Shown here one piece after another: positions 1,740 to 27,465 of a stretch of DNA of 64,000 nucleotides. The DNA lies in assembly GCA_000993115.1 (NCBI GenBank), contig LBVN01000007.1, forward strand, positions 3,587 through 67,586, read 5' to 3'. The stretch is from Candidatus Woesebacteria bacterium GW2011_GWB1_38_8b. Lineage in GTDB: Bacteria; Patescibacteriota; Microgenomatia; UBA8517. The position numbers and the translations under genes were made by a program. The number at the start of each line of letters is the position of its first letter. The stretch's first letter is position 1. The notes below the pieces were generated by a model. The model was given only the letters and a program-made list of their open reading frames with translations. It was not told the DNA's origin and searched no databases.

Positions 1740-1866
1740 CAGTTTCGAGAAAACCACGGGTGGTAGCCCTTGGATGAATCGAACCTGATATGTCATCCTC
1801 CTTTGGAGGTTTCGTTCGCAGGAAGCGAACTGGAAACCACGTCTGGAAGGACGTGGAGGATGTCAT
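1740..1866 (-). repeat. structured repeat element, copy A (127 nt), between the uvrC stop and the DUF360 gene
   Basis: Positions 1740-1810 are identical over 71 nt to 2023-2093. The remainder is related but holds an extra hairpin, CCACGTC-tggaag-GACGTGG. On the minus strand the element starts with ATGACATCCTCC and contains GGAGGATGACAT, a 12-nt imperfect inverted repeat. Confidence 0.85.
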
Positions 1867-1870
1867 TAGC

Positions 1871-3325
1871 TTATTTAATTATACCAACAAGATTCCGCTT
1901 TATTAAAATGTGATGGTAGCGTCGGGCAAATCTATGTGCTTCATTTCTTATTTTTTGTACAAAATTCAAAGCAGGACCTCTTTTTAGCTTCACTAAAACA
2001 TATTCACTCTGATTTTTTATATCAGTTTCGAGAAAACCACGGGTGGTAGCCCTTGGATGAATCGAACCTGATATGTCATCCTCCTTTGGAGGTAGCGTTC
2101 GCTGAATGCGAACGGACGGTGAGGATGTCATAAAAACAAGAGTTTCTTCGCGTTTCGCGATTCCGACAACAGGAATGTTGTGGCTTTTAAAGACACTGTT
2201 AAATTTTGAAACTTGACCTTTTCCCCCATCTACAATAATTAGATCAGGTCTCCCCCACTTAGTAAGATAACGGACCCTTCTTTTTGCAACTTCTAAAAGA
2301 GAGTCGGTATCGCTGTTTCCTTTTGTCTGTCTTATCCTAAAATGCCGGTAAAAACTTTTATCTGCAACTCCGTTTATAAAAGTAACCATTGAAGCGGTTG
2401 GAAAATTTCCTGAAATATGAGCGATATCATAACACTCGATTCTTTTAAGATTGTCAATTTTGTAATAAATATTTACTAACTTCTGAAGCCGGTTTATTTC
2501 GTTATCAATTATATCTTCAATTAAATTTGGATTCTCAAAATATCCGGATGGCGCTTCGTGTGAGTGGATAATATAGTTTATTGCATCAATTTTTTCTTTA
2601 TAAAACGAAGCGTTTTCAAAATCTTCTCTCTGAGATGTCTGTTTCATCTCTTTTTCAAACTCCAGCAGTAGATTATTAACCTTACCATTTAAAGCTTTTT
2701 TCAAATAATCAATATTTTTTTTATATTGCAATTCGAGTGTGTGTTTTTGTTTTTCATCAGTACATTTGGCTATATTACTTGGGCAAGGATTACAAAGTCC
2801 GATATGGGAGTAGAAGCATGGCCTGACATCTTGTTTGTGCACTGCATAGGGAAAAATTCTACGAAATGTTTTCAATACGATATGAACGTTTTTACCAGAT
2901 AAAAAAGGACCGTAAGTAATGCCTTTTATATTTCCCAAATCACTTTTTCTTGCTGTTTTGACCCAGGGATATTTATCTTTGACTATCACAATATATAACG
3001 GAGTTTTATCGTCTTTAAGTTGAATGTTATATTTTGGCATATATTTTTTAACCAAAAATGATTCCAAAAGGAGGGACTCAATTTCGGAATTGACAACAAT
3101 TATTCCGAAAGTTTTAGTGTTTCTAACAAGTTCAGTTGTTTTTGTTCCGAGATTTGTTCCTAAATAACTTTTCAGCCTGTTTTTTAAACTCCTGGATTTT
3201 CCGACGTACAAAACCAAACTATGGGAGTCATAAAACAAATAAATACCGGGAAGCTCAGGACACAAAGAGACGTTTTCGAGGTTAAATGATTTTTTCTTTA
3301 GAATGTTTTTTATAACTTCACTCAT
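1871..3325 (-). CDS. uvrC: excinuclease ABC subunit C carrying a 36-codon insertion and lacking the C-terminal (HhH)2 domain
   Basis: GIY-YIG N-terminus (PGIYLFYDSHSLVLYVGKSRSLKNRLKSY), a UVR-like segment, the endonuclease region (RIECYDIAHISG) and IRNEAHRFA. The gene ends 17 aa after HRFA. The 4-nt ATGA overlap with the upstream gene suggests an operon. Confidence 0.85.
   Translation of the reverse strand: MSEVIKNILKKKSFNLENVSLCPELPGIYLFYDSHSLVLYVGKSRSLKNRLKSYLGTNLGTKTTELVRNTKTFGIIVVNSEIESLLLESFLVKKYMPKYNIQLKDDKTPLYIVIVKDKYPWVKTARKSDLGNIKGITYGPFLSGKNVHIVLKTFRRIFPYAVHKQDVRPCFYSHIGLCNPCPSNIAKCTDEKQKHTLELQYKKNIDYLKKALNGKVNNLLLEFEKEMKQTSQREDFENASFYKEKIDAINYIIHSHEAPSGYFENPNLIEDIIDNEINRLQKLVNIYYKIDNLKRIECYDIAHISGNFPTASMVTFINGVADKSFYRHFRIRQTKGNSDTDSLLEVAKRRVRYLTKWGRPDLIIVDGGKGQVSKFNSVFKSHNIPVVGIAKREETLVFMTSSPSVRIQRTLPPKEDDISGSIHPRATTRGFLETDIKNQSEYVLVKLKRGPALNFVQKIRNEAHRFARRYHHILIKRNLVGIIK
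2024..2131 (-). repeat. structured repeat element, copy B (108-109 nt), in frame inside uvrC
   Basis: It shares the 71-nt core with copy A and is translated as MTSSPSVRIQRTLPPKEDDISGSIHPRATTRGFLET. Without these 36 codons the GIAKRE...EAHRF spacing is 39 aa, against 40 aa in my recalled B. subtilis UvrC sequence. Confidence 0.85.
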
Positions 3326-5133
3326 CGATGAAATTTTCGGTGCAGCGTAAAAAAGATACTTACAATTATAAATATTAATACAAGTAAAATTGCAATTTGG
3401 TTAATAATAGCGACTTCTTTTCCCGTATCAACCTCAATTGCCCTGTCACTACTTAAAATAAGGACTTTATCAGGAATATTTTTTGCAAGTAGTCCGTAAT
3501 TAAGTTTTACTTGCATTTCAAATATTTCATAAGGTATTAAGGAGGGTAAGAAAACATTATCATTTGGGTTTTTATCATTAGATTTAACATGTAAATCAAT
3601 ATTATATTCGGCTGAATACCCTTTATTTATTAAAGTAACTAATAATGTTTTTCGAAGAGGGTTATAGCTTTTTTTTATTTCAGCCTTGGTTTCTATGTTT
3701 GGAGCAATCGAATCAGGTAATTTTCCGTAACTGACAAAAACATCTTTTTTGGGAACGCTTGAAAATTTGTATGAGCCGGCAGGCAAAGGCTCCGAGTCAT
3801 TTACACCGTGAATGACAAATGCAAAATGGTTTAGATCAAATTTATTGAAATAGTCAAAGCCTGTTGTAGATTCCCAAGTTGGATCAACCGCAACCCAAGT
3901 TCTTCTGTCATTGTCCCAATACTCTGGCCATGCATGTAAAACATCCGAGACAAGCGACAACGGTTGTAGTTTATCATTTTCTGTGTAAGCATAACCCTGA
4001 ATTTCACGCACAGGAATTCCCGCTGCTCTGGTGATTGCAATAAACAAATCGGTAAATTCCGTACATAGGGCACTATTATACTGCTGGAGAGCTTTGACGG
4101 ATCCGAACCTTTCAGACTGAGGATTGACTCTGTTGAAATCATACTTAAGAGTTTTAACGACATATTTATATATTTCATCTACGGTTTTCAGCTCATTCGC
4201 TAAATCAGTAATTGCTTTATCATCAGTTTGCCAAAAACGCGTATCGCCTAAATTGTTTAAAATTGATTGAGGTGTGGGAAGTGTTAAAGATCTGGGGTCG
4301 GAAAATAATTGGACAAAACCGCTAACTACAACTGTTTTTTGCTCTAGTGGTTTTAATTTAAAAGATAAAAGCCAGTTGCCATCCTCGTCTTTTCTGGATT
4401 TAACGGGATCAGTCGAGAGTTTTGTCAGATAAACATTTTGGTACGGTGTATCGGGGGGAACGGCGATATCTAAATTTTGAGATTTTGTCGATTCGTTTTT
4501 TAGATTGTAATTAAGGTTAAATTCAAAAACCTGGAATTCTCCGAATGCAGCTTTTATTCCGCTATCGAAAGAATTCTGTCCTTTAAAAACAAATTCAATG
4601 TTTTCGCCATTTTCATTTCTCTCATATTTTGACGGCGTAACATAAGCGAGTGGACCCGTTGATGACGGAATAATAAGATGATTTTCAAAAACATCTATAT
4701 CGATAGAATTTAACTTTGGAATCGAGATTTCCAATATATTCCCCGTTTTTTTTGCAATATTTTCTTCTGTGAAATTAATTTGGAAATTACGTGTTTTCCC
4801 CTGGCCGTATAAATCATCCTCAAAAATTATTTTGACATAGTAAGAGTTTTGTTCCTCGGTCAGGTTAAATTTTAATTCTTTTCCGTTTTGGGTGACACTA
4901 AGATTTTTGGGTTTTAGGTAAGTAAAATTTACATGAAATTCTTTAGCCAGTATTTCGGACTTTAGATTTTCTATCGTGTAATCAAAAGTAACGTTTGCAG
5001 AAGCTTGGGTACTAACTTCATATTTGGCAACAAGTGTAGTTTTAAAATCGTCTTTTGCAATTATATTTTTTGGGAAAATTAGTAGTAATAAAAATGATAT
5101 TAGTGCAAATTTGATTATTTTTTTAAGTGACAT
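3322..5133 (-). CDS. transglutaminase-like (Cys-His-Asp core) exported protein with N-terminal signal anchor and C-terminal TM helix
   Basis: ALCTEFTDLFIAITRAAGIPVREIQGYAY...HAWPEYWD...WVAVDPTW matches the transglutaminase-core motif. It overlaps uvrA by 11 nt and uvrC by 4 nt. Confidence 0.7.
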   Translation of the reverse strand: MSLKKIIKFALISFLLLLIFPKNIIAKDDFKTTLVAKYEVSTQASANVTFDYTIENLKSEILAKEFHVNFTYLKPKNLSVTQNGKELKFNLTEEQNSYYVKIIFEDDLYGQGKTRNFQINFTEENIAKKTGNILEISIPKLNSIDIDVFENHLIIPSSTGPLAYVTPSKYERNENGENIEFVFKGQNSFDSGIKAAFGEFQVFEFNLNYNLKNESTKSQNLDIAVPPDTPYQNVYLTKLSTDPVKSRKDEDGNWLLSFKLKPLEQKTVVVSGFVQLFSDPRSLTLPTPQSILNNLGDTRFWQTDDKAITDLANELKTVDEIYKYVVKTLKYDFNRVNPQSERFGSVKALQQYNSALCTEFTDLFIAITRAAGIPVREIQGYAYTENDKLQPLSLVSDVLHAWPEYWDNDRRTWVAVDPTWESTTGFDYFNKFDLNHFAFVIHGVNDSEPLPAGSYKFSSVPKKDVFVSYGKLPDSIAPNIETKAEIKKSYNPLRKTLLVTLINKGYSAEYNIDLHVKSNDKNPNDNVFLPSLIPYEIFEMQVKLNYGLLAKNIPDKVLILSSDRAIEVDTGKEVAIINQIAILLVLIFIIVSIFFTLHRKFHR

Positions 5134-8033
5134 TAAGGTGTTTTTTTAAATACTGCCCCGTGTATGAGTTTTTCTCTTTAATTATATCCGAAACGGTTCC
5201 GGCTGCTACAACATTTCCACCGTTTTCCCCGCCTCCGGGACCAAGGTCAATAATCCAATCGGCATTTTTAACGACGTCTAAATTATGCTCTATTACAAAA
5301 ACACTGTTACCTCTTGATACCAAAACTTTAAGGACATAAAGAAGCTTTCGGATGTCGTCTAAGTGAAGTCCAGTAGTGGGTTCATCTAAGATGTAAACTG
5401 ATTTACCAGCCTCTCTTTTTGATAATTCCGAAGACAGCTTGATTCTTTGGGCTTCTCCTCCGGAAAGAGTCGTCGCGGATTGTCCAAGCTGCATATATCC
5501 AAGCCCGACTTCCTTTAAAGTTTCGAGTTTTTTATAAACAGGTACAAAACTATGGAAAAACTCAAGCGCTTCATCGACTGTAAGCGCCAGAACTTCGGCG
5601 ATATTCTTACCCCGATAAGATACTTCCAAAGTCTGTGAGTTATAACGCGTTCCTTTACAAACTTCGCATTTAACCCAAATGTCGCTCATAAACTGCATTT
5701 CAATTTTAGTTTCGCCCTGACCTTCACAGGCTTCACAGCGTCCCCCTTTTACGTTAAAAGAAAATCTTCCCTTCTTAAATCCAAGTGACCTTGCCTCTCT
5801 TGTTTCGGAATACAAATCGCGAATTAAATCAAAGACTTTAGTGTAAGTTGCGGGATTACTTCTAGGAGTCCTTCCGATAGGAGATTGGTCAATTAATATT
5901 ACTTTCTCGATGAATTCGTTCCCATACAGTTCATTATATTTTGACTGCGTAATTCTTGAATTTTTATTAATGGTTTTAAATAATGCAGGATAAAGAGATT
6001 CGACTAAAAGCGTAGATTTTCCTGAACCGGATACACCCGTAATAACAACATATTTTGAAAGAGGGAAGCTTACATCGATATTTTTTAGATTATACTGCGA
6101 GCAGCCTGTAAGCGTAATTGAAGAGGGAGGTAAAAAATCGGTTGTTAAATTTTGATTTTTGTTATTTTCTGCATTTTTTATTTTACCTACTTCAACCTTC
6201 TTTTTCCCCGACAGATATTGTCCCGTAAGTGATTTGGGGTCTTTTTCTATTTCAAGAGCTGTCCCTTGTGAAACAACTTCTCCGCCGTATTTTCCCGCAC
6301 CAGGCCCAAAATCAACAACGTGGTCAGCGTGGCGAATCATATCCTCATCGTGTTCAACTACTATAACCGTATTACCAAGTTCCTTTAACTTTTTTAAAGT
6401 GCTTATTAGTTTATCGTTATCTTTTTGATGAAGTCCTATGGTTGGCTCATCCAAAACGTACAATACACCTGTTAAACCCGAGCCTATTTGGCTTGCCAAT
6501 CTGATTCTTTGTGCTTCTCCTCCAGACAGCGTTCCTGAAGTTCTTGAAAGAGATAAATAATCAAGTCCGACTTCGATTAAAAACAAGAGTCTGTCATGAA
6601 TCTCTTTTAATATAAGTTTTCCGATTTCTTTTTCCCGCGAGTTAAGAATCGGTTTTTCTATAAGAGAATTAATCCAATCCAAAGTTTGTGATATTGAAAC
6701 GACAGTTATGTCGTGAATAGAGCGGTTTTCTACAGTAATTCCCAAGATTTCCTTTTTAAGTCGTGTCCCTGCACATGTGGGGCAAATTATTTCTTTCATG
6801 TATTTAAGAGTTATTTCGCGCACCATCTCCGAGCTTGTAGTAGCATAGCGCTCTTCCAATACATTCAGAATTCCCTTAAATGGTTCATAAATTTGAGTTT
6901 CCCTACCGAATCGGTTTGTACCGTGAACCTCATAAATCCGATCCCCCGTACCATTTAGAAGCAATTTTATTTTTTCATCGTCGAGTGTTTTTAAAGGTAC
7001 TCTTGTTTCAACTGAGTTTTCTTCGCAAAATGCCAAAATTAGCCTTGAAAACCAGGTTTCATGCTCAAACATATTTGAAAAAGGAAGAATTGCACCTTCT
7101 GTTATAGAAAGTTCCCATGAAAAAACGCTTTCTGGGTCGACTTTCAAAACATGACCGATACCCGAGCATTCGAAACAAGCTCCGTGGGGTGAATTAAAAG
7201 AAAAAGATCTCGGCTCTATTTCCGGAATTTGAACATTGTCTATCGGACAAGCAAATTTTTCACTGAATAAATGATCCTCAAATTCTTTCGGGGTTACGGG
7301 AATTTCTAAAGAATTATCTTTAATGTGAGAAATTATTGCCAGTCCGTCGGAAAGCTTAAGTGTTTGATCAAGCGTTTCGAGCAGTCTTGATTCCAGGTTT
7401 AACCTAAAAACTTCATTTTTAAAATCTTTTTTGGAAAGTGAAAATTTATCAATGACAACTTCAATTGAATGCTTATTGGTTTTTATTAAATACAAGTCTT
7501 CATTAAGCCCTCTAATCTGCCCGTCAACTCTTATTTGGGAATAACCTTTTGCTTTGAGATTAACTAGAAGCTGAGAAAACTCTCCTTTTTTATCTTTTAC
7601 AATCGGAGACAGAACCAAAAACCTAATCGTAGGATTTAAATTTAGCTCTTTTTCTATAAGTTTTACTACCGAGATCTTGATTTCGTCAACAGTTTGAGTT
7701 GAAATTTCACGACCGCAAACAGGACAGTGTGGATGCCCTATTCTTGCAAACAAAAGCCTTAAATAATCGTAGATTTCCGTCACGGTTCCGACAGTTGAAC
7801 GCGGATTTTTAGAAGTCGTTTTTTGATCGATAGAAATTGCCGGAGATAATCCTTCTATCGAATCAACATCTGGCTTTTCCATTATTCCCAAAAACTGTCT
7901 GGCATAAGTCGACAAGCTTTCTACATAGCGCCGTTGGCCTTCGGCATAAATAGTGTCGAATATCCAGATTAATGTTTTTTAAATTGTGCTGACGGGCACC
8001 TCTTATTTTTATTTGTTGATTTGCAATTTCCAT
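5123..8033 (-). pseudogene. uvrA: excinuclease ABC subunit A, disrupted: N-terminal Walker A segment deleted and frameshifted
   Basis: ORF 5123-7915 is UvrA from STYARQFLGIMEKPDVDSIEGLSPAISIDQK onward. The frame is open to 7957 as DTIYAEGQRRYVESL. A separate frame (8033-7959) encodes MEIANQQIKIRGARQHNLKNINLDI. The segment expected between them (about 21 aa, containing GxSGSGKS) is absent. Confidence 0.8.
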
Positions 8034-8104
8034 TTTAGCGCATTAAAAACTAACCAGCGTTTCCCCTGGCGAAAATAATTATATCAGATAGATGAAGAAT
8101 TCAG

Positions 8105-8131
8105 ACTATACGAATTATACCCGAATGTCAA
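8105..8131 (-). promoter_or_regulatory. candidate sigma70-type promoter for uvrA
   Basis: The minus strand reads TTGACA (8131-8126), a 15-nt spacer, then TATAGT (8110-8105). The spacer contains TTCGGGTATAATTCG, which resembles the lexA promoter spacer. Confidence 0.35.
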
Positions 8132-10113
8132 TTAAACTGCTTAATTTTATCCCTAAATGCAATCGCAAGTTCAAAGTTCAAATCATCTGCGGCTGTGCGC
8201 ATTTCCCGACGTAACTTTGCAATAAGCTTTTTCTGCTCCATTGGGGTTAAACTTGACGATTCAAAATCAAGCTTCCTGGTCGAAACTTTCAGTAACTTTA
8301 TTTCTTAAGGGTTTTTGAATTGAAGTCGGAGTAATATTGTGAATTTTATTATATTCGACCTGATATGCTCGTCTTCTGTCTATTTCTGATAAAGCGGCTT
8401 CGATTGATTTCGTTCTTTTGTCTGCATATAAAATAACTTTGCCTTCAACGTGTCTGGCGGCGCGTCCCATTGTCTGGATTAAACTTACGCGGCTTCTTAA
8501 AAACCCTTCCTTGTCTGCATCTAAAATTGCAACCAAAGAAACTTCAGGAAGATCTAGTCCTTCACGGAGTAAATTAACTCCAACTATTACATCAAATTTA
8601 CCTCTTCTTAAGTTATCCAGAATGTCTGTTCGTTCCAAGGTATCAATATCCGAGTGCAAATAATTTACTTTTATTCCTTGCCCCCCAAGATATTCTGATA
8701 AATCTTCTGCGGTTTTTTTTGTTAAGGTTGTTACCAAAGTTCTCTGACCTTTTTTTGTGATTTTTATTATTTCTTCTATAACATCTTTTACCTGATTTTT
8801 AATCGGTCTTATTTCAACCAACGGGTCCGGAATTCCGGTTGGCCTTACAAGTTGTTCGGTAACTCCATTTTCTTTTGGGTTATTGTTATATGCGTTGGCA
8901 GCCGACTGGTAAGCATTATTTAATTCCCATTCGTCGGGAGTTGCACTTGTGGCAATAAAACGTGGAATTCTTCTTATAAATTCCTCAAATTTTAAAGGGC
9001 GGTTGTCAATTGCAGCAGGAAGCCTGAAGCCGTAATCGATTAATGTTTTTTTACGAGATAAATCTCCTGCGTACATACCCCGTACTTGTGGAAAGGTAAT
9101 ATGACTCTCGTCGGCAACAAGTAGCCATTTATCTCCGAAAGACTTCTTAAAATAGTCCAGGAGCGAGTAAGGGGCATCTCCGGGGTTTCTTCCGTCGAAA
9201 TATCTTGAGTAATTTTCAATACCTTTGACATAGCCTACTTCGGAAAGCATTTCAAGGTCATACTTTACGCGTTGAGAAATTCTTTGGGCTTCGATAAACT
9301 TTCCTTCCGAATTAAACAAATCTACCTGTCTTTGTAGATCGCTTTTAATATTTGCAATGGCGCCTTTATTTTGTAAAGGGTCAGTGATGAAGTGTTTAGC
9401 CGGGTACAAAACATAATTTGTTAATTTCCCCTTTGCCTTGGGTGCTGATGGAGTTAAAATTTTGGTTCCGAAAGATGAAATTAATCCAAAATATTATTAT
9501 TTTCCCATTCGGTGTTGTGGTGAAAGGTAAAATGAGGGTAGTTTTTCTTAACCACATCAATTAAATATCCGCCAATAAAATGGATATCCTTTAAGCCGTT
9601 AACGGAAAAATTCTCCAAAGCCCGGTCCAGCATGCTTTTACCATTAACTTTAGTAAAACCTTTAGGAACCTTGGCAGAATAAGGCATTATCCTGTTTCCC
9701 CGCCCTGCTCCAATAATTATTATTAATAAATTTGTCGTTGCACCCAGCCTGAGTTTGTCTATTAAATCATTTATGTCGGAATCTTTTTCGATATAGGTAT
9801 CGGTTGAAGGAATATAAGCTTCGGGCTGGTAATAATCATAGTACGAAACAAAATAACTGACAGCATTTTCAGGAAAAAAATCCCGGAATTCCTGGTAAAG
9901 TTGGGCGGCTAGGGTTTTATTGTGTGAAAGTATTAAAGTTGGAAGCTGCGTTCTTTCAATTACGTTTGCAATCGTAAAAGTTTTACCGGAACCCGTAACA
10001 CCCAAAAGAACCTGATTATCAATACCCCGTGATATGTTTTTGGAAAGCTTTTCAACTGCATTTTTTTGGTCTTCAATAAGATCGTATTCAGATTTTATTT
10101 TAAATTTGTTCAT
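8128..10113 (-). pseudogene. uvrB: excinuclease ABC subunit B, disrupted: internal replacement, frame change and 3' frameshift
   Basis: 9724-10113 encodes the UvrB N-terminus ([10 protein letters not shown]...[10 protein letters not shown]...RLGATTNLL). 8267-9480 encodes UvrB from about KILTPS...YPAKHFITDP to the helicase C-terminus, in a different frame. The UVR domain (MEQKKLIAKLRREMRTAADDLNFELAIAFRDKIKQFN) is in a third frame and ends at 8128. Confidence 0.8.
9481..9723 (-). other. 5' fragment of a nucleotidyltransferase (NTP_transferase, LicC/MobA-like) gene embedded in uvrB
   Basis: (L)[80 protein letters not shown] matches the N-terminal roughly 80 aa of sugar-phosphate/choline-phosphate nucleotidyltransferases (GxGxR signature). 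It is fused in frame to UvrB residue 130 and ends in a stop. Confidence 0.65.
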
Positions 10114-10165
10114 GTAATAATTTTATATGATATAAAAATATAAGAATAATACCCAAAATTAGCTA

Positions 10166-10194
10166 TTGACTTCTTCGGGTTATATTTGTATAAA
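10166..10194 (+). promoter_or_regulatory. candidate promoter for lexA, with leaderless geometry
   Basis: TTGACT (10166-10171), a 17-nt spacer, then TATAAA (10189-10194). The ATG at 10201 lies 6 nt after the -10 element. Confidence 0.5.
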
Positions 10195-10200
10195 TATAGC

Positions 10201-10770
10201 ATGGCTCCAATAATTTACAAGAAACAATCACAAATTCTCGATTACATAAAACAGCACATCCAATCAACAGGATCTGCACCAACACTGCGTGAAATTGCAA
10301 TTGCAATTGGAGTAAGCTCCTTGGCAACTGTTCATGAACACTTAACAGCTCTTGAAGAAAAAAAGTTAATTAAAAGAAAAACAGGTAAAAACCGTTCTAT
10401 TGAGTTGGTAAACGAAACTATTAATTTTGAGGAGAAAGGAATTGAAGTTCCTATTTTAGGCTTTATTGCGGCAGGTGCGCCAATTGAGCCTTTTACTGAT
10501 CCGAATTCGTCGCTATCAATTCCAAGTGTATTTCTTTCCGGCAAAAAAAGAACTTATGTTTTAAAAGTTAAGGGCGAGTCGATGATCGATGAGCAAATCA
10601 GGGACGGCGATTATGTGATTATTGAGCAGTCTGAGATAGCTAATAACGGCGACATTGTCGTTGCGCTTTTGGATAACGGTATGGCTACATTGAAGCGTTT
10701 CCCGATATTTGTAAAAAATGTACGAATTCAGGGAAAAGTAGTAGGCCTTATACGGCGTTATTCGGCATAA
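10201..10770 (+). CDS. lexA: LexA repressor (S24 peptidase), apparently about 15 residues short in the C-terminal domain
   Basis: Winged-helix N-terminus, Ala-Gly cleavage site (FIAAGAPIEP), catalytic Ser in KGESM and Lys in ATLKRF. I start it at the ATG at 10201 rather than the track's TTG at 10186. Confidence 0.8.
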   Translation: MAPIIYKKQSQILDYIKQHIQSTGSAPTLREIAIAIGVSSLATVHEHLTALEEKKLIKRKTGKNRSIELVNETINFEEKGIEVPILGFIAAGAPIEPFTDPNSSLSIPSVFLSGKKRTYVLKVKGESMIDEQIRDGDYVIIEQSEIANNGDIVVALLDNGMATLKRFPIFVKNVRIQGKVVGLIRRYSA

Positions 10771-10779
10771 ATTATTTTT

Positions 10780-12423: not shown

Positions 12424-12480
12424 AACTAATTAACTATATAACGAAGACGTGATTAACGTAATAAGAAGAGTCAAATTAGT

Positions 12481-13749: not shown

Positions 13750-13848
13750 ATATTTATAATAGATCAAAATGTTATTTTAATAAATAACATTTTGATTAAA
13801 AAAAGTATTACTATATATCAAGCTCAAATATATTTATAACAGAGCTTG
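13750..13848 (-). promoter_or_regulatory. conserved promoter/palindrome module upstream of eno
   Basis: The minus strand reads AAGCTC-16 nt-GAGCTTGATATATAGTAATAC-7 nt-AATCAAAATGTTA-10 nt-TAACATTTTGAT-c-TATTAT-6 nt-ATG. The perfect 12-bp arms are 13763-13774 and 13785-13796. It is near-identical in layout to 31821-31920. Confidence 0.55.
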
Positions 13849-16157: not shown

Positions 16158-16209
16158 ACAATTATTTATACTAAAGGCTTATATGCGCTTGTGCAATAAG
16201 AAAAATTAC

Positions 16210-17292
16210 TTAAGAAATTCTCTTTTTGAAATAATCAACCCAAGGGATAGGAGTAGGATCCTGATTATAAAGCATTGATAAATAGAAATTTAAAAATGAA
16301 CCAAACTGAATAATCTCAAATACCTGCGATAAAATAGTTTCAGAGGTGGCTATATATTCGTATTTTTTCAATCCATTTTCTTCAATAACTTCAGTAGTTA
16401 CTTCAAACCTTTTTTTAATATGGTCAGAATACAAATTGGAATTAAATAAATAGACGCAAACCTGATTTTTAACAAAGTCCGGGTTTTTTAGTCCTTCCAT
16501 AAGGTGGTGATTAAGCTCAGGAATAACAAAATCAGCAGTTAAATTTTTACTGTTTTCATTAAACTGATTGTTAACTGTATGAGTAACGCCGACTAGATGT
16601 TCTGCGGAAAAAAATAAAATTATGTTATTTAATAGCTCAGATGCAGTTTTTTTGACAGGGTTTTGATCGAATACTACTTCAATTTTATATTTATCAATAA
16701 CATCATCCAATATCGCAACAATTTTTTGTATTTCAGATTCGTCGAAATCAATAAGGCCGCATTTGGATGCTAAGACAAGCTGTCCAATTACAGAATAACC
16801 AATAGCCATTCTGGGTTGATTTGAAGGATTAAATTTCGGGTCAATGTTATAAAAAGGCAATTTAAATTCTTTTGCAAAGTCCAGAAGTTTTCCGGAGTCT
16901 GCAATCGCAATAACTTTGGCCCCTTTTTCGATAGCACGTCTCGCGTTTGAAATTGACTCTTCTGTATTTCCCGAATAACTTGAGACAAATACTAGTGTAT
17001 GAAGGTCAACAAAACCCGGTAAATCATAATCATTTATCCTATATAAAGGTTTTCTCAACTGCTTTCTGTATGCCGACTCAATAATTCTTGCTCCCAACCC
17101 TGAACCTCCCATGCCGCACATAACAATATTTTCTACGTCATAATAGCTTTCAGGAACGACTACCTTTCTTGCTTCATCAAATGCATGAATACATTGTTTT
17201 GGAAGTTCAATTATTGAGCCATAAACATTACTCCTGTCAATATTTTTTATTTCTTCAATATTATCTAGACTATTCATCTGACTCATACCCAA
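16210..17292 (-). CDS. bifunctional phosphoglucose/phosphomannose isomerase (SIS domain)
   Basis: 360 aa with a CGMGGSG SIS motif and a length typical of the archaeal/CPR-type PGI/PMI. Confidence 0.65.
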   Translation of the reverse strand: MGMSQMNSLDNIEEIKNIDRSNVYGSIIELPKQCIHAFDEARKVVVPESYYDVENIVMCGMGGSGLGARIIESAYRKQLRKPLYRINDYDLPGFVDLHTLVFVSSYSGNTEESISNARRAIEKGAKVIAIADSGKLLDFAKEFKLPFYNIDPKFNPSNQPRMAIGYSVIGQLVLASKCGLIDFDESEIQKIVAILDDVIDKYKIEVVFDQNPVKKTASELLNNIILFFSAEHLVGVTHTVNNQFNENSKNLTADFVIPELNHHLMEGLKNPDFVKNQVCVYLFNSNLYSDHIKKRFEVTTEVIEENGLKKYEYIATSETILSQVFEIIQFGSFLNFYLSMLYNQDPTPIPWVDYFKKRIS

Positions 17293-18767: not shown

Positions 18768-18778
18768 ACTTCGAAATT

Positions 18779-19394
18779 CATTCTAACTGTGTGGCGATAA
18801 AGAAATCAAGAAGGGATCTTAAATCGCCCTTGCCGGTTTTTGCTTCAACATCAAGCTCTGATAATTTTTCTACCATAGCTTTAATATCATTTTCAGAGAA
18901 ACCTTCAGCTTGTGATTGTAGTCGCGAATAAATCGCTGAGATAGTAAATGAAAAACAAGTTCAACAGGTTCAACTTTTACAACCTCGTTTAAAAGATCCA
19001 TGGCATTTTTCGCATTTTTAGATTTTAGCGAATCCAAAAACTTCCATATTATTTTCGGTAAAGTGTAACTCTCAATTTTTAAGTCTTTTCCAAAATATTT
19101 TATTTTTGAAGCAGGAACTGCATTCTCGGTAATTACACATAGAACTAAATTATCATGGGTCAAGTTTTTATTTATAGAATCAAGATCTTTATTGGATAAA
19201 AGTGATAATTTTTCGATAAGTATAAACTTCTTGTTGAGAAAAAGATCATCAGCTCGGAGTTCGTTATCGATTTTTGTTGGTGAGTCTGATATTTTTGAAA
19301 TAATGTAGGATTTTTCCTTCGCGCTGTCGATAAGCTTTTTAATTCTTAAACTGACTTTTTCCGAATCATCGCCAGTTATTAAAATTACTTTCAT
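18779..19394 (-). CDS. holA: DNA polymerase III delta subunit-like protein (short), interrupted by a frameshift
   Basis: The N-terminal ORF 18870-19394 looks delta-like. A second frame, open over 18779-18960, encodes ...SRLQSQAEGFSENDIKAMVEKLSELDVEAKTGKGDLRSLLDFFIATQLE, a typical delta C-terminus. A single indel around 18925-18945 would join them into about 204 aa. Confidence 0.5.
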
Positions 19395-19787
19395 TTAACT
19401 CAATTTTGAAAATATGCTTGTAACTTTATCATGAAAATTTCTTTTTCCGCGTTTTTTAATATGCGGGATTAGGCTTCCTGAAAAATTTTTAGGAATATGG
19501 CTTAATTCGTGTGATAAGATTTCCTTTTTGTGACTAATATCTAAATTATCAAATCTTTCGGAAATTACTTCAATTATATATGACGGCTTAATTTTGAGTG
19601 CCTGCTGCCAAACACGACCCAATCCCCAAATCCGAGCATAAGCTCTCGCTTTTGAATTATATGATCGGAAATAATAAATATCGGCTTTAATTACCCAAGA
19701 AACTTTAGCTTCGACAATTATATTTTCGGTTAATTTTTTGATATCAGAAGCATTTTCCCAAACAACAGGTTTATTTTTTTTACGCAT
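19395..19787 (-). CDS. putative zinc metallopeptidase (HExxH)
   Basis: 130 aa with HELSH near the C-terminus. The family assignment is only approximate. Confidence 0.45.
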   Translation of the reverse strand: MRKKNKPVVWENASDIKKLTENIIVEAKVSWVIKADIYYFRSYNSKARAYARIWGLGRVWQQALKIKPSYIIEVISERFDNLDISHKKEILSHELSHIPKNFSGSLIPHIKKRGKRNFHDKVTSIFSKLS

Positions 19788-19839
19788 AATAAAGGCTATT
19801 TAATGAAGTATCAGTATACAATATAATTTTTAAAGTATA

Positions 19840-20094
19840 TTAACTTACTTTAAAAACCTCTGCACCTTCTTTTACAGGCTCATCAACCTTAAGTCCGACA
19901 ATGTCTCCTTTTTTTGCAGATTCTATTTTCTGATGTTCAACTTGGATGGAATCTACATTTTGCTCAAATAAAGTTTCACCGCCTCTTTCAAATTTGATTT
20001 TTTCTCCGACCGAAAGATCCCCAGTGAGTTCGATTATTGCAACACCAATTTTGTCAAAATAGTGGGTAACATTTCCAACCTTAAAATTTGCCAT
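19840..20094 (-). CDS. small EF-Tu domain-2-like beta-barrel protein
   Basis: 84 aa. VGNVTHYFDKIGVAIIEL...GEKIKF...KGDIVGLKV resembles the translation-factor domain II fold family. Confidence 0.5.
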   Translation of the reverse strand: MANFKVGNVTHYFDKIGVAIIELTGDLSVGEKIKFERGGETLFEQNVDSIQVEHQKIESAKKGDIVGLKVDEPVKEGAEVFKVS

Positions 20095-20129
20095 CGATTA
20101 TCACCCCCTTACAATAAAATATTACGCTC

Positions 20130-20636
20130 TTATTTTATCACGATACCGGCAGATTGTATCGCATGCGTCATTGCAATAGCCAAGGCATCGGCAGCGTTAT
20201 CAAAATGAGTTTTTTTATGTTTTTCACTTTTAATTTTATTACCTAAAAGCCTTCTGACAGCTTTTTGAACTTCTTTTTTATTTGCCCTTCCGCTTCCCGT
20301 AATTACTTTCTTTATCGTACCTGGTGCATATTCAACAACTTTTATTTTCATGGTTGATGCTGCAAGTAACATTACTCCTTGTGCCTGACCAACCGCTATT
20401 GCGGTTTTAGCATTAGTTGCAAAAAATATTTTTTCGATTACAAAAAGATCAGGTGAATATTTTTTAATAATCGTCAAAGTCTCTTCATAAATTACCTGAA
20501 GCCGGTTTTCCTTAAATCCATTTTTATCAGTCTCTATTAACCCCCATTTAATTACACTTGAGTCTCCATTATCGTTAATTTCAAGAAGTCCGTAACCCGT
20601 AGTTGCAGTTCCGGGGTCAATTCCGAGGATGATCAT
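20130..20636 (-). CDS. ruvC: crossover junction endodeoxyribonuclease RuvC
   Basis: MIILGIDPGTATTGYGL at the N-terminus, 168 aa, and a DAADALAIA motif. Confidence 0.85.
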   Translation of the reverse strand: MIILGIDPGTATTGYGLLEINDNGDSSVIKWGLIETDKNGFKENRLQVIYEETLTIIKKYSPDLFVIEKIFFATNAKTAIAVGQAQGVMLLAASTMKIKVVEYAPGTIKKVITGSGRANKKEVQKAVRRLLGNKIKSEKHKKTHFDNAADALAIAMTHAIQSAGIVIK

Positions 20637-20662
20637 GAAAAGAGTATAACACCAATTTGCTC

Positions 20663-21355
20663 TTAGTAACTTACGAAGTAATTTATTTTATATTGAGCCT
20701 TCAGGTCAGTTAGATATTTTTCAATTTCTGTCTGAAATATTTGAGATTTTAACTGGGACTCTATTTGGGCTTTTAAATCTTCGTATTTTGCAGTTTTATC
20801 AAAAGTATCTTTGTTTTCGTCATAATACTTTCTGACATCATCCTCCGTAACTGCTGTCTTATCAGCCAAAAGAAGTTCCGCCGACTTTTGGAGTTTGATA
20901 TTTGCCTTCAAGTCATTCATAGTCTGACCTTGTGTGGTAAGTGCCGCTTCCAAGGTTGTACCTTGTGCCTCTAACCCCTTTTTAATTTCGTCAATCTGTT
21001 TTTGAACATCTTCATCAGAAACTGTAATGTTTTTCTTCTTAACCTCCTGATTTATAAGCTCTTTTGTAACTATATTTTCCAACACTCTTTTACCGGATTC
21101 CTTTTCCAACTCTCTTATAATTTGAAATCTTGTAATTGGAAAGCCACCTACTGTCGCTACCACAAAAAGACCTCTTGCAAGATAAATTCCTCCTGCTAAA
21201 ACCAACAAAAGAAGTATAACAAGGTATTTTCTACTTAATTTTAATTTTGAAGTTTTCAAATTAGTACTCTTTACTTCATCAAAACCCACCGGTTTGACCA
21301 GAATTTTTGATGCAGTTTTTTTAACCACGCTCTTTTTAGATTTAGTTGTTGCCAT
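20663..21355 (-). CDS. SurA N-terminal-domain / PpiC-like chaperone, membrane anchored
   Basis: An N-terminal TM segment is followed by a coiled, lysine- and glutamate-rich chaperone-like domain. No clear PPIase core was seen. Confidence 0.45.
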   Translation of the reverse strand: MATTKSKKSVVKKTASKILVKPVGFDEVKSTNLKTSKLKLSRKYLVILLLLVLAGGIYLARGLFVVATVGGFPITRFQIIRELEKESGKRVLENIVTKELINQEVKKKNITVSDEDVQKQIDEIKKGLEAQGTTLEAALTTQGQTMNDLKANIKLQKSAELLLADKTAVTEDDVRKYYDENKDTFDKTAKYEDLKAQIESQLKSQIFQTEIEKYLTDLKAQYKINYFVSY

Positions 21356-21555
21356 TAAAATAAGGTTTTGAAGATTATATATAACAAGATAGTCAAAAGT
21401 AAAGAGGAACTTATTGGGAAGTAAATATGAAGACCTTGTTTTTCAATATAAATATCACCGGGTAAGATTATTTCAAATTTCCCTTTAATCCTAATTGCAT
21501 AAATAAAAGCCGTCGAAATTATATAGCAAAGTAGAAAAAGTTTAAAAGGACTCAT
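21355..21555 (-). CDS. DUF2905-like small membrane protein
   Basis: 66 aa with two TM segments and a PGD-I...YFPI motif. Confidence 0.45.
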   Translation of the reverse strand: MSPFKLFLLCYIISTAFIYAIRIKGKFEIILPGDIYIEKQGLHIYFPISSSLLLTILLYIIFKTLF

Positions 21556-21644
21556 GTCTATAATATTTCAAAACTTGTAAAAAATGTAAAGACGCAAAAA
21601 ATTAACTGTTGAAATGTTTATTAATTTAGGGCAATAATAGATGT

Positions 21645-22469
21645 ATGGAGGAACAGGAAGATATTCCAAATATTCCGGTGAACCCGGAGACGGTTGTTGA
21701 AAAAAAAGTTGAGACTCAGTCTGACTTGGGTCAGGTAATGCAAAATAACACCCCCGGTCCTCAATCTGTTATCTCATACAAGAAAAAGAAAGGTTTTATT
21801 GACTATTTTATTTATTTTGTTTCGATAGTTGCTTTTTTGGTTTGGGTAGCTGTAATAGCTCTATATTTTCTAAATAAAAACAAAAAAGAAGCAATTACTA
21901 ATGTAGACACTTCAGAAGTTACACCAGTCGTAACTTTAGTACCAGAAAAAAAATATAATATTACGACAAAAAACGGAAATGTTATTAATATCAATGAAAA
22001 AGGTGAAGAGGAAATTGTAGTAAAAAAAGAAGATTATGAATTTACAGGAATTTCAGGTTTTATAAAAGTATCAGTTGCCCCGAATAAGAAAAAGTTATGC
22101 TTCGAATCTTGGCCACCATCTCCACAACCAGCTCTTTATGTTTCGGATATAGAAGGTACTGGAGTATTAAAAGTAAATACAAACAGAAGAAATTGTTATT
22201 GGTCCGGTGACAGTTTAAAGCTGGTTTATAACGATGTTAAAAGTGAAAAAGAAGCCACTAATCTTTATGTTTATGATGTCGAAGCCGCCTCGGAGACTTT
22301 GCTTACTGTACATACTGCAACCGAATCAGCTAAGCCTAAGCTACACACCGCATTGGGTTGGAGCTCTGATAATAAAAAGGTGTTATGTCAATACTCTTAC
22401 CAAAAAACCCCTAAAGACGTAAGGGAATGTGAGGTTGACGTTGAATCAAAGTTTGTAAACTACTTTTAA
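21645..22469 (+). CDS. hypothetical membrane-anchored protein
   Basis: 274-aa ORF with a single TM segment (FIYFVSIVAFLVWVAVIALYF). I did not recognise a family. Confidence 0.5.
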   Translation: MEEQEDIPNIPVNPETVVEKKVETQSDLGQVMQNNTPGPQSVISYKKKKGFIDYFIYFVSIVAFLVWVAVIALYFLNKNKKEAITNVDTSEVTPVVTLVPEKKYNITTKNGNVININEKGEEEIVVKKEDYEFTGISGFIKVSVAPNKKKLCFESWPPSPQPALYVSDIEGTGVLKVNTNRRNCYWSGDSLKLVYNDVKSEKEATNLYVYDVEAASETLLTVHTATESAKPKLHTALGWSSDNKKVLCQYSYQKTPKDVRECEVDVESKFVNYF

Positions 22470-22481
22470 AATATTTTCTTC

Positions 22482-23246
22482 ATGGTGAAATTTAAAATAA
22501 TATTTGTAATTTCACTTTTATTTTTATCTCTAAGCATAGGCTATTATTTATTTAATAATATTTCAACTAAAAATGTTAATATCGATCCATCGGCCTCTAA
22601 TACTCCAACTTTAAAAAACCCTTACGAAAATATATTCAATGGGTACGAGATTGATTGGATTGAGATAAGAAATTTAGAAAGTATAAATTTAAACTCTAAT
22701 TTGATTAAAAAACTTTCATCCGACGAAATTTATGAAAATAAAAAATGTAAATATTTAATCAGTGCCGGCTTTTATAACAAAAATGATGAACACATAGGTC
22801 TTTTTGTTGAACAGGGGAAATTAATCAGTGATTACATAAAAGACGATTTTTTTAATGGGTTTTTTTATTTAAAAGAAAATAAAGCGTATATTTCTTTAAA
22901 TAACCCAAAGAACCCAACCATCGCTTTACAATCAGGTCCGGTTTTAATGTTAAATAACAGATATTTAATTAATAATTTTGTTAACGAGGAATTTGCAAGA
23001 AGAATTTTAGTTGGATTATCAAATTCGGGAAGTGTTATTTTTATAACAATATTTGCAGAGAATAAAATAAACGGTCCAAAACTTTCTGAGATTCAAGGTT
23101 TGTTTGAAAAGTTGGAAGAAAAAACACAAATAAATATAGTTGATTTGATCAATCTTGATGGAGGTAGTCACTCTGCTTTTTTTTCTGATACTAATAAAAT
23201 AAGAGAACTTTCAACAATCGGAGGCTATTTTTGTATTTCCCGATAG
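22482..23246 (+). CDS. phosphodiester glycosidase family protein (DUF2233/NAGPA-like)
   Basis: Signal anchor, with ISAGFYN, LQSGPVL and NLDGGSHSAF motifs. Confidence 0.55.
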   Translation: MVKFKIIFVISLLFLSLSIGYYLFNNISTKNVNIDPSASNTPTLKNPYENIFNGYEIDWIEIRNLESINLNSNLIKKLSSDEIYENKKCKYLISAGFYNKNDEHIGLFVEQGKLISDYIKDDFFNGFFYLKENKAYISLNNPKNPTIALQSGPVLMLNNRYLINNFVNEEFARRILVGLSNSGSVIFITIFAENKINGPKLSEIQGLFEKLEEKTQINIVDLINLDGGSHSAFFSDTNKIRELSTIGGYFCISR

Positions 23247-23247
23247 G

Positions 23248-23613
23248 TTAAGATAACCCCACATTTTTTATATGATTCAAGGAAATATTACCCTGGTTCC
23301 CGGAAATTGCAATTACATCAATTCTAATTTTATTTTTACCTTCATTTAAACCGTGACTATATAAATAATAATCAATCGTTTTTATAATTCTTTTTAATTT
23401 CGTTTTTGTAATAGCTTCCTCCGGAGTACCAAATTTACTATTGATTCTTTTCTTAACTTCTATAAACACCAATGAGTTACCGTCTTTTGCAATGATATCG
23501 ATTTCTCCGAATTTACCTCTAAAATTTTTATCTATTATTTTATAGCCAAGACTACTGATAAATTTAGCAGCAATCAACTCACCTAGATCTCCACTAGCTT
23601 TAGAGGTAACCAT
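23248..23613 (-). CDS. yraN: YraN family (UPF0102) endonuclease-like protein
   Basis: GELIAAKFISSLGYKIIDKNFRGKFGEIDIIAKDGNSLVFIEVKKR. Confidence 0.75.
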   Translation of the reverse strand: MVTSKASGDLGELIAAKFISSLGYKIIDKNFRGKFGEIDIIAKDGNSLVFIEVKKRINSKFGTPEEAITKTKLKRIIKTIDYYLYSHGLNEGKNKIRIDVIAISGNQGNISLNHIKNVGLS

Positions 23614-23639
23614 TCTTTAAATTATATAACTTTCAAAAC

Positions 23640-23984
23640 TTAGGAGCGTTTGGTGTTTCTTGAATTTATTTTATCTATCTCGCGTCTGGATTTGTCGCGA
23701 ACATAATATATTTTTGCGTGTTTCACTCCTTTGACATTACTTTTTACAACAACAATATTTGAAATTGTCGGAGTATTTAGTGGAAAAACTTTCTCAATTC
23801 CAACATTTTGTTCACCAATTTTTCTGACTGTAAAAGTTTTTACGGTAGGACTACCTTTTATGGCTATTACCATACCTTCAAAAATTTGGTTTCTGGTTTT
23901 TTCATGCTCCTTTATTGTCTGAAACACTTTAATTTTATCCCCGACTCCAAAGGTAATATCTTTATAAGTTAATGTAAGTGACAT
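23640..23984 (-). CDS. rplS: 50S ribosomal protein L19
   Basis: FGVGDKIKV...RNQIFEGMVIAIKG...FTVRKI...GIEKVFPLNTP. Confidence 0.9.
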   Translation of the reverse strand: MSLTLTYKDITFGVGDKIKVFQTIKEHEKTRNQIFEGMVIAIKGSPTVKTFTVRKIGEQNVGIEKVFPLNTPTISNIVVVKSNVKGVKHAKIYYVRDKSRREIDKINSRNTKRS

Positions 23985-24031
23985 ACTAAGTGGCTATTTT
24001 ACACTAAAGTAGAACCAATATTCAACGACAA

Positions 24032-27000
24032 TTAATTTGCGAGGTTTTCTAATATTTGCTCGATAGAATGGGCCATCTGGGTGTCCCAATTAATTTTTAC
24101 GTTTAAATCGAGCTGTTTATTTATTTCTCCTTCAAAAACAAGGCAGACTTTATGATCACCCGGATTTTTTAATATCAATTCTTTAAGGCTGGATAATTTT
24201 TCCGTCCCAGTCCCTTTAGGGATTCTTATAAATAATTTATTATCTTCAGTAATTATTTCCTTTTCGTTTTTAATTGACTCAACTATAAGTGAAGGCTCTT
24301 CGTCACGAAAATCAATTTTTCCTGATAATAAATAAGGATTGCTGTCCGTAAGAATTTCTTTTGTTCCGCTAAAAATACTTGGGAAAATAACTACATTAAT
24401 TGTTCCTGTTTCATCCTGAAATTTTGCAAAAGCCATTTCTTGTCCGCTTTTTTTTGTAATAATTACCCTCAAATCATTAATTATACCGGCGATGTTTACT
24501 TCCATTCCTTCTGATCCTGTTATGTGATTATCAAATATATCGCTTATTTTAAAGTTGGATAATTTATTAATGTTTTTCAGGATTTCACCGTTTGGATTTC
24601 TTCGTCGGTAAACTCGTCGATATCCTGACCCATCAAATTGTCAAACTTTAAAGAAGTTGAGTTTAAATCTGAAAGTGAAAACAGTTCATTTTGGTTTTCA
24701 TTTTTGAGAGCTTTACCTGAATATTTTTTATACTCCTCAACCACTTTCAGAAGTTGTGATCTTTTACCAAAGTCCGATAAAGCACCTACTTTGATTAAAC
24801 TTTCCAAAACCTTTTTGTTTACCCTTCTTCCATCTACTCTTTCCAAGAAGTCCAGGAAATTCTTAAATTTCTCTTTATTTCGTTCAGTTAATATAGCATC
24901 TATTGCAGCATTCCCTACGTTTTTAATAGCGCTTAAACCAAAGCGAATCCCTTTTTTATGACTTGAATCAACAGTTTCTTCAATATCAAACCCAACAGAA
25001 CTTTTATTAATATCGGGTGATAAAACTTTTACGTCCATTCTTCGGCATTCATTTATGGCTTCGGTAATTTTATCAGTGTCATTGCTTTCTGCAGTCAAAA
25101 GCGCACACATGTACTCAACAGGATAGTTCGCCTTCATATAGGCGGTTTGGTACGCGACTAACCCGTAACTTGCAGCATGTGCTTTATTAAAGCCGTAAGA
25201 TTGAAAAGGTTCAAATAATTTCCATAGATCTTCTGCAAATTTCCCGGTTTGTCCATTGTCAACTATACCTTTTATGAATTTTTCTTTCTGCGCCGCCATT
25301 TCTTCGGGAATTTTTTTACCTACCGCTTTTCTGAATTTGTCAGCTTCTTCCCAGGAATAACCTGCCAAATCAAGTGCACAGAACAATAGATCGTCCTGAT
25401 AAACTAAAAGACCGTACGAAGCTCCTAAGAATTTTTCCATTCTCTTGTCTAAAAATTTTACGAGAGTTGGATCGTGCTTTCTTTTGATGTACTCAGGGAT
25501 TTGTTGAATAGGCCCGGGGCGATAAAGCGCTACCATTGCCATTAAATCTTCAATTCGGGTTGGTTTTAACTCTTTTAAAAATTTTGTCATGCCTGAGCCT
25601 CCCAATTGAAAAGTGCCCATTGTTTCTCCTCGAGCTAGCATCTCATATGTTTTTTTATCGTCAAGGGGAATGTCATTAATTTTTATTTTTGTCCCGTACC
25701 TTTCTTCAACAATTTTTATGGCAGCCCCCAAAATAGATAAATTCCGGATTCCTAAAATATCAAATTTAATTAGTCCAACATCTTCACAGGTATGGAATTC
25801 ATATTGAGTAATAATTTTGTCGCCTGATGGCTCAAGCTGTACTGGAGAATAATCGGTAATTTCAGTGGGTGCAACCACAACTCCTGCTGCGTGTACCGAG
25901 AGATGTCTTGCCGATCCTTCAAGCTGTATAGCTAAGTCTAAAATCTTTTTAACATCAGCATCACTTTTATACATATCGTTTAGTTCGCTAACTTCTTCCA
26001 GAGCTTTCGGAACTGTAATAGGGAAACCCTGTTTTGGCGGAGGGATGAGTTTTGCTACCTTGTCTCCTGTTGCATATGGATATCCTAAAACACGTGCCAC
26101 ATCACGTACAGCCGCTCGGGATAGCATCCTTCCGAATGTACAAATTTGTGCGACCTTGTCATGGCCGTATTTATCGGAAATATATTTTATGATTTCTTCT
26201 CGTCTGTCGTCGGCCACGTCGAAGTCAATATCCGGAGGAGAGGGTCTGTAAGGATTTAAAAAACGCTCAAACGGTAAATAATACAAAAGTGGATTTATTG
26301 TGGTTATTCCTAAAACAAAAGAGACGAGTGAGCCTGCCGCAGAACCCCTTGTATTTGTAATAATCCCCTGTTCGTTGCTCCACCTTGCGAGATCCATAAC
26401 AATTAAAAAATATGGCGAGTAACCCTTTTGGCAAATTATATCTAGTTCGTAATTTAATCTTTCTTCTTCTTCTTTGCCTGATTTAGGAATTATAATTTTT
26501 AAGTTTTCGTGTGAAAGTCTTCTTAATTCCTCATCGGGTGTTTTCCCTTTGGGCAAACTGAATTTAGGAAAAAACCATTTGCCTAAAGTAATTTCCAGTT
26601 CGCACTTTTGGGCTATCTTTACGCTGTTTTCTATTGCATCCGGGATATCAGAAAATATTTTCTGCATTTCATCGGGTGTTTTTAAATAAAAGTCCGGATT
26701 ATCTATATATCGTAAGCGCTTTATGTCGCCTACGTTTTTCCCTGTTGCAATGCAAACCAAAGCATCCTGAGCAGGAGCGTCTTCCTTTTTAATATAATGA
26801 GCATCGTTTGTTGCTACTAATGGAATACCGAATTCACGGCTTAATTTAATCACTCCATCTTCATACTTTTTACAATTATCAGCAACTCTCTCGAGATCAG
26901 ATTTTAATTCAGGAATTTTTATATCTGGTAATATACTCTCGTAATTATGCCGTTGTATTTCCATATAAAAATCGTCTTTAAAAACATCTAAATAAAACTC

Positions 27001-27465
27001 TGCCAACTTTGATGCTTCCAGGTAGTTTTCATTTATAAGGCTTTGCGGTATTTGAGCGGCTGGACATCCTGAAAGACAAATTAAGCCTTCACTGTATTTT
27101 TTAAGGATTTCGTTGGTAAAGCGAGGTCTGTAATAAAATCCTTCAATATGTGCAATCGATGTAAGTTTCATCAGGTTTTTATATCCGGCTATATTTTTTG
27201 CTAAGAGAGTGAGGTGATAGTTGTCTTTAACCTTTTCGGTAAGAGACGTTGTTACATATCCTTCAAGTCCAATAATTGGCTTTATTCCTTGTTTAATCCC
27301 TTCTTTGTAGAACTCTATTGCACCATACAACTCTCCATGGTCAGTGATTGCAACGGCATCCATATTGTTTTCACCAATATGCTTAAAAAGCTTTTTTATA
27401 TTGCTTAAGCCGTCAAGAAGAGAATACTCAGTATGAACGTGAAGATGTACAAATTTTGCGGACAT
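24032..27465 (-). CDS. dnaE: DNA polymerase III alpha subunit, split into two ORFs by a frameshift near 24577-24613
   Basis: 24577-27465 encodes the PHP, palm/fingers and HhH regions (FVHLHVHTEYSLLDG...). The OB-fold and C-terminal tail (MEVNIAGIINDLRVIITKKSGQEMAFAKFQDETGTINVVIFP) are in another frame that is open from 24613 downward. The fused length would be about 1143 aa, normal for DnaE. Confidence 0.8.

Follow-up and report, generated by a model that had tools for sequence, protein, structure and literature searches.

Apparent lesions in DNA repair and replication genes of a “Candidatus Woesebacteria” draft genome are most likely local assembly errors

The stretch of DNA analyzed here (“the window”) comprises 64,000 nucleotides (nt) of the draft genome of “Candidatus Woesebacteria” bacterium GW2011_GWB1_38_8b (assembly GCA_000993115.1; contig LBVN01000007.1, positions 3,587 to 67,586). 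It is densely coding, mainly on the minus strand, with a GC content of about 35%. The genes in question are those for nucleotide excision repair (uvrA, uvrB, and uvrC; NER), the SOS gene lexA, the replicase subunit genes holA and dnaE, and a methyltransferase gene (Table 1). An original prediction, made from the sequence alone, regarded the first six of these genes as disrupted or atypical and proposed either real decay of the NER/SOS pathway or local assembly problems.

Table 1. Features of the window discussed in the text (positions as in the window; aa, amino acids)
Feature	Position	Strand	Description
uvrC	1871..3325	-	484 aa, open, identical in all fetched contigs covering it; no assembly lesion
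uvrC insertion	2021..2130	-	About 99 nt in frame, adding 33 aa between EETLVF and YVLVKL
Second repeat copy	1727..1870	-	Spacer between uvrC and a holin-like gene; kept in the sister strain
uvrA, broken	5123..8033	-	62-nt deletion, junction 7958-7960; first (N-terminal) Walker A PKNQLIVFTGVSGSGKSSMAF lost, with frameshift
uvrB, broken twice	8128..10113	-	Intact in other assemblies (683 aa)
uvrB 41-nt deletion junction	8269..8271	-	Frameshift ahead of the C-terminal UVR motif
uvrB replacement	9435..9722	-	313 nt swapped for a 288-nt mosaic
Foreign fill in uvrB	9485..9722	-	238 nt, one mismatch to the 5' end of the donor gene (L037, L039)
Rest of uvrB fill	9435..9484	-	50 nt matching neither uvrB nor the donor gene
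lexA, shortened	10201..10770	+	In-frame 51-nt deletion at 10701/10702; 17 aa FKEATRIRLEPANTTMS of the S24 peptidase domain lost
holA	18778..19394	-	58-nt deletion at 18925/18926, frame change
dnaE	24032..27465	-	46-nt deletion, junction 24591-24599; OB domain separated
SAM-methyltransferase, truncated	42196..42738	-	251-nt deletion at 42248/42249; 229 aa in other assemblies

For comparison, 36 overlapping contig stretches (loci L001 to L036), which jointly span all 64 kb, were fetched from ENA, JGI, NCBI, and Logan. They belong to a groundwater population of “Ca. Woesebacteria” (Microgenomates) within the candidate phyla radiation (CPR) and are 98.5 to 100% identical to the window, frequently 100.000% across 6 to 16 kb. 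Exact-protein look-up identified the NCBI relatives GCA_000990505.1 and GCA_000992155.1 (KKQ24692/3, KKQ87350/1, and KKQ43348/9). The window departs from the population consensus in exactly seven events of at least 41 nt, namely, six deletions and one replacement. Across positions 1 to 64000, every one of which is covered by at least one other assembly, neither an indel of 1 to 5 nt nor any further length difference was found. Private single-nucleotide polymorphisms (SNPs) number at most three in the 64 kb, each at a site covered by only four loci, and the window contains no N.

None of the seven junctions is present in any fetched contig that covers the respective site, and the sequences flanking the uvrA, uvrB, lexA, holA, and dnaE lesions are 99.1 to 100% identical between the window and the intact contigs. 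When the missing segments are put back into the window, exactly the full-length open reading frames (ORFs) of the other assemblies result (UvrA, 990 aa; UvrB, 683 aa; LexA, 206 aa; HolA, 224 aa; DnaE, 1159 aa). The Pfam domain sets of these proteins are complete in the other assemblies, e.g., interaction domain, DNA-binding domain, and ABC ATPase in UvrA; ResIII, UvrB_inter, Helicase_C, UvrB, and UVR in UvrB; a DNA-binding domain and the full 116-position S24 profile in LexA; and PHP, alpha, finger, HhH, and OB domains in DnaE. In the window, the uvrA translation runs through MEIANQQIKIRGARQHNLKNINLDI and continues in another frame at FDTIYAEGQRRYVESL, the Walker A segment between them being gone. 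Thus, the deletion and frameshift that the original prediction read in uvrA are visible both in the junction translation and in the contig comparison; its replacement with two frame changes in uvrB corresponds to the swap of 313 nt for 288 nt and the 41-nt deletion, and its short lexA corresponds to the in-frame loss of 51 nt. Programmed frameshifting, split genes, and an alternative genetic code were considered and rejected, because the lost segments encode conserved motifs (e.g., Walker A) that are kept elsewhere.

The replacement in uvrB differs from the deletions in its content. The UvrB translation is normal up to LGATTNLL, passes into an NTP-transferase-like stretch, and returns to UvrB out of frame at YPAKHFITDP. 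Scanning JGI contigs for exact DNA matches located the donor: 238 nt of the fill correspond to about the first 238 nt of a gene from a different organism (43% GC) that encodes a 614-aa NTP-transferase/MetE-like protein and is found in JGI contig C687J35174_10002319 (L037, 7422-9266) and in ENA assembly ERZ27254845 (L039, 2869-4713). At the protein level, a search with this 82-aa foreign fragment had no match above 63% identity. The accession of the donor assembly lies near those of ERZ assemblies that contain “Ca. Woesebacteria” contigs (ERZ27254732, 746, 749, and 767), and this closeness of accessions suggests that donor and “Ca. Woesebacteria” contigs stem from the same study. Such a length-preserving patchwork from other genomes resembles a mis-filled scaffold gap. 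The donor protein itself is an unusual fusion in which an NTP-transferase domain at the N terminus is followed by a MetE-like (Meth_synt_2) domain at the C terminus, and the nearest proteins to its N-terminal domain in a database of 5.8 billion clusters are just 63% identical.

Outside the uvr genes and lexA, holA is intact in 10 of the 10 other contigs fetched. The dnaE deletion, at whose junction 9 nt match on both sides, splits the gene into ORFs of 962 and 157 aa; the 1159-aa gene is intact in locus L012, and the deletion site is also read through by loci L011 and L018. One frame change in each of these two genes had been predicted and is present, yet the proposal that they are simple sequencing indels does not hold, since deletions of 58 and 46 nt belong in one class with the lesions of the uvr genes. 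In L012, 14 substitutions, mostly at third codon positions, lie within about 100 nt of the OB-domain region (window positions ~24300-24410); this patch is a small recombinant in otherwise identical sequence, about 180 nt from the dnaE lesion. The remaining event is specific to the window and lies outside positions 1740-27465; it removes the last 63 codons of the methyltransferase together with the 3' end of a convergent 111-aa ORF. The truncated methyltransferase may be what the original prediction called a glycosyltransferase remnant. Apart from this additional lesion, the expectation that the other genes are intact was correct.

To count lesions in sibling assemblies, every locus was aligned to the repaired window sequence. 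Scaffold-type assemblies (ANAN16 scaffolds and GW2011 NCBI genomes) contain 13 lesions in 283 kb, and contigs of the same population from MEGAHIT, SPAdes, JGI, and Logan contain none in 264 kb (conditional P ~2e-4). The lesions are clean deletions of 14 to 125 nt or runs of N in place of 19 to 232 nt. In GCA_000992155.1 (L009 and L028), deletions affect iPGM (26 nt), lexA (98 nt), uvrA (97 and 69 nt), and IMPDH (125 nt), and 32 Ns stand in place of 232 nt in parB. The ANAN16 scaffolds (L002, L011, L015, L017, L021, and L029) have N-gaps upstream of uvrA (38 nt), in ileS (59 nt), and at the PGI/PGM junction (19 nt), a further run of 9 Ns at ~60,500, and deletions in ppsA (14 nt), PGM (41 nt), and IMPDH (17 nt). 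Hence, iPGM, ppsA, PGI/PGM, IMPDH, ParB, and ileS are hit as well as uvrA and lexA. Truncated proteins that result from these sibling lesions now sit in public protein databases. A lexA/uvrA breakpoint that appeared to be common to the window and L009 was rejected as an artefact of aligning to the window; the deletions overlap, but their ends differ.

Taken together, the lack of the lesions in all independent assemblies fetched and the near-exact match of their flanks indicate artefact rather than biology. We therefore regard all seven as most likely errors of assembly or scaffolding, and the confidence in an artefactual origin is high when artefacts of gap handling are included. The deletions would have arisen from collapsed or mis-closed gaps of about 40 to 250 nt, and the uvrB replacement from one gap filled with a chimeric stretch of a presumably co-occurring organism; the exact pipeline step is one that we infer. 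Local errors of this kind have been described before: 13 were found in one CPR genome (Chen et al. 2020, Genome Res, PMC7111523), and the program ra2.py (Brown et al. 2015) was made to detect them. Judged from the assembled sequences, the organism itself appears to hold complete uvrA, uvrB, uvrC, lexA, holA, and dnaE. Accordingly, of the two explanations originally offered, that of local assembly problems is borne out by lesions that are private to the window and of the same class as those in sibling scaffolds. The restoration of the genes by corrected data was obtained in part: five are restored by independent assemblies rather than from reads, and uvrC was never damaged.

A likely cause for the clustering of lesions around uvrA and uvrB is found in the population itself. 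In locus L008 (ENA ERZ4902915), uvrA shows an abrupt recombination breakpoint at ~7790. Below this position, L008 and the window agree at 100%; above it, across the 5' end of uvrA, the spacer, and uvrB, identity drops to 60 to 75%. The divergent block reaches at least position 9060 (~9200 in repaired coordinates), and its uvrA patch has a synonymous divergence (dS) of ~1.5 and a ratio of nonsynonymous to synonymous divergence (dN/dS) of 0.06. Therefore, the population holds two very different haplotypes of the block that comprises uvrB and the 5' end of uvrA. In four assemblies, the defects in or near uvrA are found within ~70 to 330 nt of this breakpoint: the window junction at 7958, the L009 lesions at 7930-8022, a 1-nt insertion at 7858 in L003, and the N-gap at 8086-8125 in L002. 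Thus, the fork between the two haplotypes probably caused the clustering, as suggested by the positions of these lesions.

Several observations weigh against an artefactual origin. (i) Six of the seven lesions lie in repair/replication genes (binomial P = 5e-4 if the lesions are independent), a class which, strictly defined as uvrABC, lexA, holA, ruvC, dnaE, and polX, occupies 21% of the window, and two of the affected genes, holA and dnaE, are distant from the uvr block. (ii) In GCA_000992155.1 (L009), deletions distinct from those of the window, but overlapping them, affect the uvrA Walker A and lexA sites as well, and such overlap in two assemblies could reflect real recurrent deletion alleles. 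(iii) The lesion density of the window (1 per 9 kb) is higher than that of the sibling assemblies (1 per 22 kb), and it is also above that of the published CPR example. (iv) Only two of the seven lesions (those in uvrA and dnaE) lie within 250 nt of a SNP-dense patch, which is not significant against a background of 13%; adjacency to SNP-dense strain patches was therefore rejected as a general cause. (v) Exact look-up of the 210-aa UvrB chimera and the 962-aa DnaE in the gene index returned no record, a 44-mer from the window's uvrB had no match in the GTDB representative genomes, and we infer from assembled sequences that reads would not support the seven junctions.

The first of these points corresponds to the non-random distribution noted originally, which stands in its nominal form and is weakened on closer counting. 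When the four lesions of the 2.9-kb uvrA-uvrB-lexA block are counted once, the enrichment has a P value of 0.03. Among 15 lesions counted in the siblings, uvrA and lexA together account for 5, no significant excess (P ~0.19 against a roughly estimated expectation). The enrichment is thus nominally non-random and explained in part only; the lesions in holA and dnaE, which come in addition to those of the block, are treated as chance pending reads.

If the deletions were real in one recent sub-clone, this clone would have lost NER and SOS control and would have an altered replicase. The concentration of lesions in repair and replication genes fits such a clone, as does the resemblance of the overlapping Walker A and lexA deletions of L009 to recurrent loss-of-function alleles, and real deletions can leave a 9-nt match like that flanking the dnaE deletion. 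However, the seven junctions occur in none of the other fetched contigs, which represent many samples, and private point mutations are practically missing from the window. Moreover, dnaE and holA, which encode essential replicase subunits, are both frameshifted, the fill in uvrB is a three-source mosaic that includes the gene start of another organism, and the lesions of L009 in iPGM, IMPDH, and ParB point to assembly error in that genome too. We consider such a sub-clone very improbable. There is likewise only a slight chance that the deletions are real low-frequency alleles of aquifer “Ca. Woesebacteria,” i.e., minority alleles caught by the assemblers; if they were, the deletions of the uvrA Walker A and the LexA peptidase domain would point to NER/SOS inactivation being repeatedly selected for, or tolerated, in a CPR symbiont.

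Reductive evolution of the whole lineage, with NER and SOS decaying in a reduced CPR genome, was the biological explanation proposed originally. The small size of CPR genomes, a UvrC without the tandem helix-hairpin-helix domain (HhH)2, and a HolA of only 224 aa would agree with it. However, among the conspecific assemblies fetched, only four have disruptions in uvrA, uvrB, or lexA, each with different lesions of its own, and the lesions of the window are shared by none of the fetched contigs that cover the sites. The complete domain sets also speak against decay, and relaxed selection on the remaining uvr sequence is contradicted by dN/dS values of 0.12 for uvrA and 0.20 for uvrC, which indicate purifying selection; the window's uvrA and uvrC contain no substitutions of their own. 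Because there are seven large events, no small indels or frameshifts, and at most three private SNPs, the pattern is not that of pseudogene decay. With intact genes in independent assemblies, decay is refuted at the population level, and we assign it a negligible probability. The lesions may instead stem from processing after assembly, in which short scaffold N-gaps were removed or closed up without restoring the lost sequence, leaving clean deletions. In the siblings, runs of 10 to 32 Ns replace 19, 38, 59, and 232 nt, and the last three lengths are near the window deletions of 41 to 62 and 251 nt; the lack of any N in the window is also in keeping with this route. However, it leaves the 288-nt foreign mosaic unexplained, and as a variant of the artefact explanation it is inseparable from assembly error without the original scaffold records. 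On the whole, we consider it unlikely as a separate cause.

Unlike its neighbors, uvrC carries a natural allele rather than a lesion. The original prediction of an insertion was correct, whereas its reading of the gene as damaged was not, since the allele is the normal one of the population. UvrC retains the GIY-YIG nuclease domain (PF01541, residues 27-100; PDB 1yd6, E = 1.8e-21) and the RNase H-like endonuclease domain (PF08459, residues 292-467, E = 1e-36), which is interrupted by the insertion, and the catalytic-His motif EAHRFA is kept. Alignment with Thermotoga UvrC (2NRR) places the insert in the short segment that separates the EETVVFE strand from the catalytic-His helix. The empty site is represented by the 451-aa UvrC of a sister strain (P0036 and P0040) and its DNA (L038), which lack the 33 aa and 99 nt, respectively; the sister protein reads EETLVF-TKKSASGEVK-YSLVKL where the window has EETLVF-MTSSPSVRIQRTLPPKEDDISGSIHPRATTRGFLETDIKNQSE-YVLVKL. 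No HhH match was found in either the 484-aa or the 451-aa allele, and the ORF stops just past the endonuclease domain. Because (HhH)2 is missing from both alleles, its absence is a lineage trait. The dN/dS of 0.20 given above was calculated between these two alleles. UvrC with the insert is probably functional.

The inserted element has a second copy nearby. The repeat pair shows 94% identity over 97 nt (window positions 2017-2113 and 1734-1830, 283 nt apart), and each copy (~99 to 140 nt) contains two strong hairpin domains (z = -4.4 to -5.9). Only two copies exist within the ~72 kb examined. Rfam has no family for the element, only four tRNAs being matched anywhere else scanned, and a 24-nt core of the repeat has no match in 185,579 GTDB representative genomes. 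The uvrC element is a real mobile-element insertion and the sole new biological observation made here. One ENA contig encodes a 575-aa UvrC-holin fusion (P0037), which resulted from a collapse between the two repeat copies.

Elsewhere in the window, a pair of 53-nt inverted repeats (83% complementary) lies at 13776-13828 and 31841-31893, 18 kb apart. Both copies are intergenic, one upstream of the enolase gene and the other beside gatC, and they may represent a shared promoter or regulatory motif.

A real loss of uvrABC together with lexA would bear on the mutation rate and lifestyle of CPR bacteria. The evidence points in the opposite direction, as the population retains a complete NER/SOS set under purifying selection. 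What the window does illustrate is that draft metagenome-assembled genomes can hold dense local errors of 40 to 250 nt which mimic pseudogenes and can cluster near forks between strain haplotypes. Claims of gene loss therefore need to be checked against independent assemblies or reads.

Small symbiont genomes, e.g., those of insect endosymbionts, provide known cases in which DNA repair genes were lost by genome reduction. The window resembles these in that several repair genes of a small genome seem to be broken in one stretch, but its lesions are not common to conspecifics, point and nonsense mutations as well as relaxed selection are lacking, and essential replicase genes are affected too. 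In-frame insertion into ORFs is known for miniature structured repeats such as the Rickettsia palindromic elements (RPEs). Although the uvrC element is seen in only two copies, has no sequence relation to RPEs, and has no identified terminal inverted repeats or target-site duplication, it is like them in its length of ~100 nt, its strong hairpins, its in-frame insertion without a stop into a conserved protein gene, the empty site in a close relative, and the second copy in a nearby spacer. The seven lesions differ from the published local errors of short-read metagenome assemblies (IDBA-UD type; PMC7111523) in their higher density and their concentration in one functional class. They are alike in the following respects: the errors measure tens to hundreds of nt, lie in perfect surroundings, break ORFs, and are absent from independent assemblies, while sibling assemblies are hit elsewhere and one gap has a foreign fill.

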